This document shows positions 35,616 through 41,617 of a DNA stretch of 46,799 bases, in pieces; the first letter of the stretch is position 1, and the number at the start of each line of letters is the position of its first letter. Origin of the DNA: a virus (lineage: Duplodnaviria > Heunggongvirae > Uroviricota > Caudoviricetes). The translations under genes were made by a program, and so were the position numbers. Location: IMG/VR virus record IMGVR_UViG_2597490154_000003. The stretch is one strand, 5' to 3'. Under the pieces are notes generated by a model that did not search any database, was not told where the DNA came from, and saw nothing but the letters and a program-made list of their open reading frames with translations.

Positions 35616-35721
35616 CGGCGTTTCTCTTTTGCTCTCTGTAGGGGTGAATTGAAGTGGTTTACTGAATTTGGCCACCTGAACAGAGGTGATATGCTCACCT
35701 CAGAACAACACAGGTGCCATA

Positions 35722-36024
35722 ATGAAAAAAAGAAATTTCAGCGCAGAGTTTAAACGCGAATCCGCTCAACTGGTCGTTGACCAGAATTACACCGTGGCAG
35801 ATGCAGCCAGCGCTATGGATGTCGGCCTTTCCACAATGACGCGATGGGTGAAACAATTACGTGATGAGCGGCAGGGAAAAACACCAAAAGCCTCCCCTAT
35901 TACCCCGGAACAAATTGAAATCCGTGAGCTCAGGAAAAAGCTACAACGTATTGAAATGGAAAATGAAATATTAAAAAAGGCTACCGCGCTCTTGATGTCA
36001 GACTCCCTGAACAGTTCTCGATAA
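35722..36024 (+). CDS. IS911 transposase OrfA
   Basis: 100 aa [53 protein letters not shown]... (HTH plus leucine zipper); A6G slippery site AAAAAAG at 35973-35979 for OrfAB frameshift. Confidence 0.85.
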
Positions 36025-36050
36025 TCGGGAAACTCAGGGCGCGTTATCCT

Positions 36051-36872
36051 GTGGCCACTCTCTGCCATGTGTTCGGGGTCCATCGCAGCAGCTACAAATA
36101 CTGGAAAAACCGTCCTGAAAAGCCAGACGGCAGACGGGCTGTATTACGCAGCCAGGTACTTGAACTGCATGGCATCAGCCACGGCTCTGCCGGAGCAAGA
36201 AGCATCGCCACAATGGCAACCCAGAGAGGCTACCAGATGGGGCACTGGCTTGCTGGCAGACTCATGAAAGAGCTGGGGCTGGTCAGCTGTCAGCAGCCGA
36301 CTTACCGGTATAAACGTGGTGGTCATGAACATGTTGCTATCCCTAACTACCTTGAACGGCAGTTCGCCGTGACCGAGCCAAATCAGGTGTGGTGCGGTGA
36401 TGTGACCTATATCTGGACGGGTAAGCGCTGGGCGTACCTCGCCGTTGTTCTCGACCTGTTCGCAAGAAAACCAGTGGGCTGGGCCATGTCGTTCTCGCCG
36501 GACAGCAGGCTTACCATGAAAGCACTGGAAATGGCATGGGAAACCCGTGGTAAAGCCCGTCGGGGTGAATGTTCCAACAGCGATCAAGGCAGTCATTATA
36601 CGAGCAGGCAGTTCCGGCAGTTACTGTGGAGATACCGGATCAGGCAGAGTATGAGTCGGCGTGGAAACTGCTGGGATAACAGCCCAATGGAGCGCTTCTT
36701 CAGGAGTCTGAAGAACGAATGGGTGCCGGCGACGGGCTATGTAAGCTTCAGCGATGCAGCTCACGCAATAACGGACTATATCGTTGGATATTACAGCGCA
36801 CTAAGACCGCACGAATATAATGGTGGGTTACCACCAAACGAATCGGAAAATCGATACTGGAAAAAACTCTAA
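36051..36872 (+). CDS. IS911 transposase OrfB (variant: local frame change relative to copy 2)
   Basis: 273 aa DDE-type integrase domain; differs from copy 2 only in a short stretch (ARRGECSN versus PVGVMFH) next to the [10 protein letters not shown] block. Confidence 0.8.
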
Positions 36873-37014
36873 CTCGGTGGCCAGTTTTTGTTGACCACTT
36901 CAAATAGAGTTTATCCGATTTCTCGTTGTAGGGGTACACGAGAACCACCGAGCCTGATGTGGTTAAAAGACAGGCACAATCTTTACTACCGCAATCCACT
37001 ATTTAAGGTGATAT

Positions 37015-37101
37015 ATGGAAGAAGAATTTGAAGAGTTCGAAGAGCATCCTCAAGATGTGATGGAACAATACCAGGACTATCCGTATGACTACGACTATTG
37101 A
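37015..37101 (+). CDS. small acidic ORF (lambda orf28-like)
   Basis: my own translation: MEEEFEEFEEHPQDVMEQYQDYPYDYDY, 28 aa, RBS AAGGTG; overlaps ral start; below track size cutoff. Confidence 0.4.
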   Translation: MEEEFEEFEEHPQDVMEQYQDYPYDYDY

Positions 37102-37285
37102 TACAAATCAATGGTGTGGACAATTCAAACGATGCAATGGATGCAAGCTGCAATCGGAATGCATGGTTAAGCCTGAAGAAATGTTTCCTGTAATGGAAGA
37201 TGGGAAATATGTCGATAAATGGGCAATACGAACGACGGCAATGATTGCCAGAGAACTTGGTAAACAGAACAACAAAGCTGCCTGA
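37085..37285 (+). CDS. ral: restriction alleviation protein Ral
   Basis: 66 aa MTTTIDTNQWCGQFKRCNGCKLQSECMVKPEEMFPVMEDGKYVDKWAIRTTAMIARELGKQNNKAA matches lambda Ral. Confidence 0.9.
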   Translation: MTTTIDTNQWCGQFKRCNGCKLQSECMVKPEEMFPVMEDGKYVDKWAIRTTAMIARELGKQNNKAA

Positions 37286-37421
37286 TAGTGGCCTTTATTT
37301 TTGGCATAAATAACAGAATAAACACTGCACTGTGTATTCATTCCAACGAGTGAATACACGGAGCAATGTCGCTCGTAACTAAACAGGAGCCGACTTGTTC
37401 TGATTATTGGAAATCTTCTTT

Positions 37422-37448
37422 GCCCTCCAGTGTGAGGGCGATTTTTTA
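37422..37448 (+). terminator. intrinsic terminator within the PL operon (tL-type)
   Basis: hairpin gccctc-cagtgt-gagggc followed by GATTTTTTA between ral and ea10. Confidence 0.45.
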
Positions 37449-37467
37449 TCTATGAGGATATGAATAG

Positions 37468-38557: not shown

Positions 38558-38562
38558 AACGG

Positions 38563-39348
38563 ATGAGTACAGCACTCGCAACGCTGGCAGGGAAGCTGGC
38601 TGAACGTGTCGGCATGGATTCTGTCGACCCACAGGAACTGATCACCACTCTTCGCCAGACGGCATTTAAAGGTGATGCCAGCGATGCGCAGTTCATCGCA
38701 TTGTTGATCGTCGCCAACCAGTACGGCCTTAATCCGTGGACGAAAGAAATTTACGCCTTCCCTGATAAGCAGAACGGCATTGTTCCGGTGGTGGGCGTTG
38801 ATGGCTGGTCCCGCATCATCAATGAAAACCAGCAGTTTGATGGTATGGACTTTGAGCAGGACAATGAATCATGTACATGCCGGATTTACCGCAAAGACCG
38901 CAATCATCCGATCTGCGTTACCGAGTGGATGGATGAATGCCGCCGCGAACCATTCAAAACCCGCGAAGGCAGAGAAATCACGGGGCCGTGGCAGTCGCAT
39001 CCCAAACGGATGTTACGGCATAAAGCCATGATTCAGTGTGCCCGTCTCGCCTTCGGATTTGCTGGTATCTATGACAAGGATGAAGCCGAGCGCATTGTCG
39101 AAAATACCGCATACACTGCAGAACGTCAGCCGGAACGCGACATCACTCCGGTTAACGATGAAACCATGCAGGAGATTAACACTCTGCTGATCGCCCTGGA
39201 TAAAACATGGGATGACGACTTATTGCCGCTCTGTTCCCAGATATTTCGCCGCGACATTCGCGCATCGTCAGAACTGACACAGGCCGAAGCAGTGAAAGCT
39301 CTTGGATTCCTGAAACAGAAAGCCACTGAGCAGAAGGTGGCAGCATGA
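38563..39348 (+). CDS. bet: Bet (Red-beta single-strand annealing protein)
   Basis: 261 aa [66 protein letters not shown]... matches lambda Bet. Confidence 0.95.
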
Positions 39349-40025
39349 CACCGGACATTATCCTGCAGCGTACCGGGATCGACGTGAGAGCTGTCGAACA
39401 GGGGGATGATGCATGGCACAAATTACGGCTCGGCGTCATCACCGCTTCAGAAGTTCACAACGTGATAGCAAAACCCCGCTCCGGAAAGAAATGGCCTGAC
39501 ATGAAAATGTCCTACTTCCACACCCTGCTTGCTGAGGTTTGCACCGGTGTGGCTCCGGAAGTTAACGCTAAGGCGCTGGCTTGGGGAAAACAGTACGAGA
39601 ACGACGCCAGAGCCCTGTTTGAGTTTACTTCCGGCGTGAATGTTACTGAATCCCCGATCATCTATCGCGACGAAAGTATGCGCACCGCCTGCTCTCCCGA
39701 TGGTTTATGCAGTGACGGCAACGGCCTTGAGCTGAAATGCCCGTTTACCTCCCGGGATTTCATGAAGTTCCGGCTCGGTGGTTTCGAGGCCATAAAATCG
39801 GCTTACATGGCCCAGGTGCAGTACAGCATGTGGGTGACGCGAAAAGATGCCTGGTACTTTGCCAACTATGACCCGCGTATGAAGCGTGAAGGACTGCATT
39901 ATGTCGTGGTTGAGCGGGATGAAAAGTACATGGCGAGTTTTGACGAGATGGTGCCGGAGTTCATCGAAAAAATGGACGAGGCACTGGCTGAAATTAGTTT
40001 TGTATTTGGGGAGCAATGGCGATGA
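39345..40025 (+). CDS. exo: Exo (Red-alpha 5-prime to 3-prime exonuclease)
   Basis: 226 aa [65 protein letters not shown]... matches lambda Exo. Confidence 0.95.
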
Positions 40026-40204
40026 CGCATCCTCACGATAATATCCGGGTAGGCGCGATCACTTTCGTCTACTCCGTTACAAAGCGAGGCTGGGTATTTC
40101 CCGGCCTTTCTGTTATCAGAAATCCACTGAAAGCACAGCGGCTGGCTGAGAAGATAAATAATAAACGGGAGGCGGTATGCACAAAGCATCTCCTGTTGAG
40201 TTAA
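40022..40204 (+). CDS. lambda orf60a-like protein
   Basis: track ORF 40016-40204; from [60 protein letters not shown] resembles remembered lambda orf60a. Confidence 0.55.
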
Positions 40205-40351
40205 GAACGAGTATTGAGATGGCACATAGCCTTGCTCAAATTGGAGTCAGGTTTGTGCCAATACCAGTAGAAACAGACGAAGAATTTCATACGTTAGCCA
40301 CATCCCTTTCACAAAAGCTGGAAATGATGGTGGCGAAAGCAGAAGCAGATG
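40177..40351 (+). pseudogene. lambda orf63-like gene truncated by IS911 insertion (last 7 codons displaced to 41602-41621)
   Basis: [58 protein letters not shown] then IS911 end; removing the IS and one ATG copy restores ...AEADERDQV-stop. Confidence 0.6.
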
Positions 40352-40381
40352 TGAAGTGGTCAACAAAAACTGGCCACCGAG

Positions 40382-41200
40382 TTAGAGTTTTTTCCAGTAT
40401 CGATTTTCCGATTCGTTTGGTGGTAACCCACCATTATATTCGTGCGGTCTTAGTGCGCTGTAATATCCAACGATATAGTCCGTTATTGCGTGAGCTGCAT
40501 CGCTGAAGCTTACATAGCCCGTCGCCGGCACCCATTCGTTCTTCAGACTCCTGAAGAAGCGCTCCATTGGGCTGTTATCCCAGCAGTTTCCACGCCGACT
40601 CATACTCTGCCTGATCCGGTATCTCCACAGTAACTGCCGGAACTGCCTGCTCGTATAATGACTGCCTTGATCGCTGTGGAACATCACCCCGACGGGCTTA
40701 CCACGGGTTTCCCATGCCATTTCCAGTGCTTTCATGGTAAGCCTGCTGTCCGGCGAGAACGACATGGCCCAGCCCACTGGTTTTCTTGCGAACAGGTCGA
40801 GAACAACGGCGAGGTACGCCCAGCGCTTACCCGTCCAGATATAGGTCACATCACCGCACCACACCTGATTTGGCTCGGTCACGGCGAACTGCCGTTCAAG
40901 GTAGTTAGGGATAGCAACATGTTCATGACCACCACGTTTATACCGGTAAGTCGGCTGCTGACAGCTGACCAGCCCCAGCTCTTTCATGAGTCTGCCAGCA
41001 AGCCAGCGCCCCATCTGGTAGCCTCTCTGGGTTGCCATTGTGGCGATGCTTCTTGCTCCGGCAGAGCCGTGGCTGATGCCATGCAGTTCAAGTACCTGGC
41101 TGCGTAATACAGCCCGTCTGCCGTCTGGCTTTTCAGGACGGTTTTTCCAGTATTTGTAGCTGCTGCGATGGACCCCGAACACATGGCAGAGAGTGGCCAC
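40382..41200 (-). CDS. IS911 transposase OrfB
   Basis: 272 aa, DDE integrase domain with [22 protein letters not shown] block. Confidence 0.85.
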
Positions 41201-41226
41201 AGGATAACGCGCCCTGAGTTTCCCGA

Positions 41227-41529
41227 TTATCGAGAACTGTTCAGGGAGTCTGACATCAAGAGCGCGGTAGCCTTTTTTAATATTTCATTTTCCATTTCAA
41301 TACGTTGTAGCTTTTTCCTGAGCTCACGGATTTCAATTTGTTCCGGGGTAATAGGGGAGGCTTTTGGTGTTTTTCCCTGCCGCTCATCACGTAATTGTTT
41401 CACCCATCGCGTCATTGTGGAAAGGCCGACATCCATAGCGCTGGCTGCATCTGCCACGGTGTAATTCTGGTCAACGACCAGTTGAGCGGATTCGCGTTTA
41501 AACTCTGCGCTGAAATTTCTTTTTTTCAT
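41227..41529 (-). CDS. IS911 transposase OrfA
   Basis: 100 aa identical to copy 1 OrfA; slippery site (plus-strand ctttttt) at 41272-41278. Confidence 0.85.
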
Positions 41530-41617
41530 TATGGCACCTGTGTTGTTCTGAGGTGAGCATATCACCTCTGTTCAGGTGGCCAAATTCAGTAAACCACTTC
41601 AATGAGAGAGACCAGGT

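Follow-up and report, generated by a model that had tools for sequence, protein, structure and literature searches.

Two ISEc52 insertions in opposite orientation in the PL operon of a lambdoid prophage of Escherichia coli ATCC 25922

Introduction

A pair of inverted insertion sequence (IS) copies around the Red region of a prophage raises the question of whether two elements inserted separately, whether the block moved as a composite transposon, or whether the copies have recombined and inverted the DNA between them. We addressed this question in a 46,799-nucleotide stretch of viral DNA (IMG/VR record IMGVR_UViG_2597490154_000003; the whole stretch is called the window below). A 7.7-kb query around the two IS copies is a 100% match to the chromosome of Escherichia coli ATCC 25922 (NZ_CP009072.1), and the window corresponds to positions 3891464-3938262 of that record. 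It is a lambdoid prophage of 46.8 kb, which ends at its own integrase, adjoining icd. We find that the arrangement is explained by two independent insertions of ISEc52, an IS3-family element, into the PL operon of an ev017-like lambdoid prophage at icd in the ATCC 25922 lineage, a reading that we hold with a probability of roughly 95%.

Results

We located the boundaries of both elements by direct reading and with a repeat finder. The latter returned inverted arms at 35648-36553/40698-41603 and 36577-36905/40349-40677, about 1.25 kb on each side. In both copies the element starts with TGAAGTGG and ends with CCACTTCA; the termini are TG...CA, and the terminal inverted repeats are imperfect, with matches at 25 of the 36 end positions. 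Copy 1 is flanked by AAT and copy 2 by ATG on either side (Table 1), in agreement with the separate 3-bp duplications described in an initial annotation of the window. The tip of the left inverted repeat (IRL) of copy 1 lies 34 nt from the sieB ATG (35615-35613, - strand), as had also been stated there.

Comparison with related prophages that lack both elements reveals the empty sites. Strain ABU 83972 contains a prophage that is otherwise the same: window segments 31600-35649, 36903-40351, and 41602-45300 align to it at 100% and without gaps. Each block shares exactly 3 nt with the next, first AAT and then ATG, and the IS-free locus has one of each, so that the boundaries and the 3-bp flanking repeats hold. 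Clone D i2/i14 has the same 5192-bp span (7701-1253-1250-6; its empty sites were judged by span), and the free phages ev017 and PhiR57_1 have the IS-free 5192 bp at 100% identity. As the empty sites have a single AAT and a single ATG, both elements are simple insertions with 3-bp duplications, and as the bracketed segment is in its ancestral orientation, no inversion has occurred. The initial claim of two independent simple insertions without an IS-mediated inversion thus stands on the empty sites of ABU 83972 and ev017, and we found nothing that contradicts it. Element boundaries, duplications, empty sites, family membership, and the absence of inversion are direct observations, as are the assembly errors described below.

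The two-IS arrangement is present in ten further records, eight of which are ATCC 25922, Seattle 1946, or laboratory-derivative entries, the other two being M16807 and ZLWT. The Japanese sublines LTC101 and JCM 5491 have it with copy 1 rearranged.

Table 1. Features of the two-IS locus and ISEc52 insertions in related prophages (positions refer to the window)
Feature	Position	Strand	Remarks
Candidate nutR	31966-31920	-	after cro; parallels nutL
Candidate nutL	34601-34657	+	boxA-like GCTCTTTAA, boxB-like hairpin GGCTGAAAAGCC; upstream of N; read from sequence
N antiterminator gene	34745-35017	+	Pfam N_peptide, E = 9.7e-33; same protein accession annotated as N peptide in other records
sieB, superinfection exclusion B	35034-35615	-	intact; annotation, Pfam
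AAT target-site duplication, copy 1	35647-35649 (left), 36903-36905 (right)		one AAT at the ABU 83972 empty site
ISEc52 copy 1 (IS3 family, IS911-like)	35650-36902	+	IRL at left end; 1253 bp here, 1250 bp in other ATCC 25922 assemblies
Copy 1, orfA	35722-36024	+
Copy 1, A6G slippery site	35973-35979	+
Copy 1, orfB frame	to 36872	+
Assembly-specific stretch of copy 1	36244-36576	+	A for G at 36244; extra single A at 36552, 36568/9, and 36576; absent from CP117235.1
Bracketed segment (ral, ea10, cIII, kil, gam, bet, exo, orf60a, orf63')	36906-40348	+	oriented as in IS-free relatives
Truncated orf63 homologue (DUF1382)	40177-40351	+	58 of 63 codons kept; 109-aa fusion into the IS, ending at 40506
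ATG target-site duplication, copy 2	40349-40351 (left), 41602-41604 (right)		one ATG at the ABU 83972 empty site
ISEc52 copy 2	40352-41601	-	1250 bp; IRL at right end
Copy 2, orfA	41529-41227	-
Copy 2, orfB	41200-40382	-	deduced OrfAB 382 aa
AHB22, simple insertion in sieB	35258-35260		CTA duplication
THO-006, oppositely oriented copy	35259 to 37162		DNA between lost
100181, copy between ral and ea10			ATT duplication
CP52E, copy after cI			AAA duplication
Ec40743			one simple insertion and one deletion derivative
C25	35649, IS, then 40322		exact copy 1 left junction; ral to orf63 deleted, copy-2 site empty
Nissle 1917, one copy (6390-7639 of extracted stretch)	35638 (left), 46372 inside int (right)

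The + strand of the window is that of PL transcription and presents a cI-like repressor, two accessory genes, and a terminator, followed by N and the genes up to xis and int. Annotation and Pfam matches (N_peptide, SieB, Ral, DUF1317, and DUF1382 among the window proteins) give the order N, sieB (- strand), IS, ral, ea10 (DUF2528), cIII, kil, gam, bet, exo, orf60a (DUF1317), orf63' (DUF1382), IS, which is collinear with lambda, as initially noted. Copy 1 had been placed between N and ral; this is correct, the more precise site being between sieB and ral. Homology to more distant lambdoid prophages (Ec40743 and strain 100181) begins at 36908, only 5 nt past the right end of copy 1 (36902/36903), which puts the IS almost on a mosaic module boundary (36907/36908). 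Accessory genes for a bor-like serum-survival lipoprotein (iss, 23536-23829) and an ompC-like porin (25620-26702) are found between Q and the lysis genes.

Our comparisons bear directly on whether the IS-Red-IS block came in as a composite transposon, or is able to move as one. It resembles the inverted-IS composite transposons of the Tn10/Tn5 type in that two identical inverted IS copies bracket a few kb (3.4 kb here), and its two outer IRL ends could in principle work together. Unlike them, it has a separate duplication at each IS, encloses DNA that is native to this locus, and shows no sign of having moved. The outer flanks are unlike (AAT outside copy 1, ATG outside copy 2), IS-free relatives have the Red segment at the same place and at 100% identity, and the two-IS arrangement is confined to this prophage locus in assemblies of the ATCC 25922 lineage, with the IS-Red-IS block seen at no other locus and in no other genome. 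Different outer flanks mean that the block was not brought in as a composite transposon; with no single duplication around it, no second locus, and a native interior, this origin is refuted, and we give next to no credence to the block as a mobile unit.

Homologous recombination between the copies is the second alternative to two undisturbed insertions, since identical inverted repeats of 1250 bp that lie 3.4 kb apart are a good substrate for RecA and could have inverted the Red segment, or do so appreciably often. The reference state is not inverted, as shown by duplications that match at each copy and by a gene order that follows the IS-free prophage. We also assembled a synthetic inversion junction (400 bp of the sieB flank, the IS, and 400 bp of the reverse-complemented orf63 flank) and searched it in 5,426 complete E. 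coli genomes. The maximum coverage was 81%, corresponding to one flank plus the IS, and an inverted or transposed version of the bracketed segment was found in none of these genomes, with the limit that consensus assemblies cannot show minority subpopulations. We consider a past or frequent inversion very improbable. The initial suggestion that the pair could mobilise or invert the Red region is allowed by the geometry but finds no support in the junction coverage or in an arrangement confined to one locus.

The copies differ in the window. Relative to copy 2, the changes in copy 1 alter residues 279-286 of OrfAB, immediately ahead of the catalytic SDQG motif (KARRGECSN versus KPVGVMFH), and cause R175H, and the NCBI Prokaryotic Genome Annotation Pipeline (PGAP) downgrades the copy 1 label in NZ_CP009072.1 to the generic "IS3 family transposase." Copy 1 might on these grounds be a decayed element with a damaged transposase, biologically unlike copy 2. 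A second ATCC 25922 assembly, CP117235.1, differs from the whole 46.8-kb window at only 9 positions, namely four in copy 1, one single-nucleotide polymorphism (SNP) at 23002, and four single-T insertions at 17514-17527; all four copy 1 differences are thus absent, and copy 1 equals copy 2 exactly. Other full-length two-IS assemblies, those of ATCC 25922 included, have a 7698-bp span with identical score, strain 25DN being 2 nt shorter (7696 bp). The four T insertions fall within 14 nt of a non-repeat gene, whose S49 head peptidase is frameshifted only in CP009072.1, and they share with copy 1 the signature of clustered single-base homopolymer extensions. Since the differences are missing from the other ATCC 25922 assembly, the extra 3 nt and the one SNP of copy 1 are, judged from these sequences, assembly errors, and the true copies are identical. 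We dropped the decayed copy as extremely improbable, its differences being specific to one assembly. Identity of the true copies is consistent with recent insertion.

The element has the hallmarks of the IS3 family: a matching transposase model, two overlapping open reading frames (ORFs) with a -1 frameshift site, TG...CA repeats, and a 3-bp duplication (3 bp, rarely 4 bp, in the family). OrfA comprises 100 aa, the sequence A AAA AAG is located at IS positions 324-330 in the correct phase, and the predicted frameshift would yield an OrfAB of 382 aa. OrfAB scores 380.6 bits against NCBIfam NF033516 (transpos_IS3; cut-off 160), covering residues 9-374 of 382, and contains Pfam HTH_Tnp_1 and rve domains, both above cut-off.

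In other ATCC 25922 assemblies PGAP labels both copies "IS3-like element ISEc52 family transposase." Our comparisons with ISEc52 and IS911 use PGAP-labelled copies rather than ISfinder type sequences. Plasmid copies labelled ISEc52 are 97-98% identical to the window copies, and we detected no difference in kind. The IS911 comparator, from a plasmid of Shigella dysenteriae NCTC 9718 (GTA duplication), has 94.2% nucleotide identity (72 substitutions or indels in 1250). It is 1249 bp long compared with 1250 bp here, shares the last 40 nt of the right inverted repeat (IRR), the 100-aa OrfA, the A6G -1 frameshift site, and the 3-bp duplication, and its OrfAB is ∼97% identical outside a C-terminal frame difference in the comparator. 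IRL positions 9-11 are TTT in the window element and CAC in this PGAP-labelled copy; at window 35658-35660, this is the only terminal-repeat difference between the two. These positions presumably lie within the -10 element of the IS911 junction promoter, which is formed when the ends abut in the circle. Our text search of the literature found no paper that gives the IS911 IRL sequence, and the comparator therefore rests on its PGAP label. By ISfinder convention, isoforms are above about 95% amino acid and/or 90% nucleotide identity, values that the comparison with this PGAP-labelled copy would reach. The initial name IS911 is thus right in kind (same family, same architecture) and wrong in current nomenclature, as PGAP assigns ISEc52 and closer ISEc52-labelled copies exist. 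From its sequence, the element is ISEc52, a 1250-bp IS3-family insertion sequence closely related to IS911. The IS pair is ordinary and already annotated.

ISEc52 is also found in the sieB/ral region of near-identical icd prophages of Nissle 1917, C25, THO-006, and AHB22, as deletion derivatives or at other sites (Table 1). Duplications at other copies labelled ISEc52 or IS911 are CTA, ATT, AAA, CCT, and GTA. The sieB junctions of AHB22 and THO-006 are 1 bp apart and in opposite orientations (IS at 2162-3411 and 2161-3410 of the extracted stretches, respectively), which, together with the other ISEc52 insertions, suggests that sieB and its surroundings are a preferred ISEc52 target in this prophage family. 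The Nissle 1917 prophage has lost ral, the N-terminal part of int, and everything between them, and its IS has no target duplication. C25 contains an IS-flanked 2.6-kb unit (hypothetical gene, TraR, ead) triplicated in tandem with three IS copies (6401-12836 of the extracted stretch). ISEc52 has rearranged this prophage family on several occasions.

JCM 5491 (AP035801.1) and LTC101 (AP029248.1), two Japanese derivatives of ATCC 25922, lack the same 496 bp (window 35154-35649) and with them most of sieB. In each subline a full 1250-bp IS is located between ...ACGGTCGGT and AATAGAG... (1555-2804 of the extracted JCM 5491 stretch, 1055-2304 of that of LTC101). Its left end is IRL in LTC101 and IRR in JCM 5491, an exact flip with no target duplication. 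Taken by itself, the LTC101 form could have arisen by an ordinary adjacent deletion; the exact in-place flip is not predicted by any simple IS3-family reaction. For IS30 and IS911, junction-driven cascades of deletion and inversion are described, in which IR-targeting gives only IRL-IRR (direct) junctions (PMC9333248), and we rejected IR-targeting as a sufficient explanation of the flip because only direct junctions result. The most economical common origin would be an unstable intermediate in which the 496 bp was flanked by a pair of inverted copies, either arm then being lost between identical 9-bp tips. We tentatively propose, at somewhat less than even odds, that copy 1 is at present active in the ATCC 25922 lineage, rearranging by way of such an unstable inverted-pair (palindromic) intermediate. 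Alternatively, one of the two subline assemblies may have the IS mis-oriented.

We next consider what the insertions do to the genes around them. The orf63 homologue of ABU 83972 has 63 codons and ends in ...AKAEADERDQV, and in the window 58 codons plus one base are left. Five sense codons (ERDQV) and the stop are displaced, which corrects the seven codons initially reported as lost, and the homologue gains a new C-terminus from the IS. On the other side, copy 1 would separate sieB from whatever lay more than 34 bp upstream. The two elements add 2.5 kb, and the genome should still fit a lambda-size capsid. The consequences of the insertions appear modest.

Copy 1 had initially been judged likely to be polar on PL transcription, and in a strong form of this view it would silence ral through int on induction and cripple the prophage. 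It is a 1.25-kb insertion within an operon, and IS elements are classically polar in unmodified transcription units. The PL transcript of this prophage would be modified, however, as a nutL candidate and the N gene precede copy 1. The nutL and nutR candidates share boxA (GCTCTTT), an AACAACG spacer, TACGT, and a boxB hairpin with a GAAAA loop, and their boxB stems show a compensatory G-C/C-G exchange. An N protein and boxA/boxB candidates downstream of both PL and PR point to a lambda-type N/nut operon. The nutL candidate is located within an annotated ORF for a 60-aa "hypothetical protein" (34585-34767), which has no Pfam match. A consensus scan for terminator-like sites gave none on the + strand of copy 1 and two weak candidates in copy 2.

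Adhya, Gottesman, and de Crombrugghe reportedly found in 1974 that N-modified transcription overrides IS polarity; our literature search returned no open-access paper that states this directly. The locus resembles the lambda early-operon insertions in which N is said to release polarity, in that the IS is downstream of a nut site in a PL-type operon, and differs from them in that the only expression-related data for the ATCC 25922 prophage come from one induction report (PMC10567762). In that study PHASTER delimits a prophage Phi2 at 3891555-3940922 of NZ_CP009072.1, scored "complete" and listed with "transposase," and Phi2 DNA was detected by quantitative PCR (qPCR) in precipitated particles after mitomycin C (PMC10567762). 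With nutL and N upstream, polarity that N is reported to override, a copy 1 free of terminator-like sites, and Phi2 recovered from particles, we regard polarity of copy 1 as doubtful and strong polarity on PL, with a crippled prophage, as unlikely. N-dependent antitermination from nutL would be expected to carry PL transcription through both elements.

Discussion

Our analysis gives the following history for the two ISEc52 copies. Copy 1 inserted between sieB and ral, its transposase genes reading in the direction of PL, and copy 2, in the opposite orientation, into codon 59 of the orf63 homologue. Each insertion made the 3-bp staggered-cut duplication typical of the IS3 family, and the copies have not recombined with each other since.

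Several points qualify parts of this account. The C25 prophage has exactly the left junction of copy 1; copy 1 may predate copy 2, and indeed the ATCC 25922 lineage, with the junction inherited in common, or else this position may be an insertion hot spot. The probable route of insertion, copy-out/paste-in via a figure-eight and a circular intermediate, is taken by analogy from the IS911 literature (summarised in PMC9333248). A sigma-70 consensus scan upstream of sieB in the empty site returned no promoter, and as the only site lies inside the gene, at the occupied and the empty locus alike, the scan is uninformative. Finally, the induction evidence is qPCR on precipitated particles, which is no rigorous proof of packaging or of normal bet/exo expression.

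For general biology the finding has little weight: it is a clean textbook pair of simple IS insertions, with empty sites in sister strains and in free phage. It matters more for the strain, as ATCC 25922 is the global control strain for antimicrobial susceptibility testing. The errors in CP009072.1 create false pseudogenes in the copy 1 transposase and in the S49 head protease of the prophage. If the palindromic intermediate is real, culture-collection stocks of this worldwide quality-control strain would be diverging via an unusual IS rearrangement pathway. The prophage appears to be still inducible, and its virions may therefore carry ISEc52 to new hosts. Among the changes made by ISEc52 are the large deletion by which the Nissle 1917 copy is crippled and those that set JCM stocks apart from ATCC stocks; such remodelling is relevant to the use of these strains as isogenic references.

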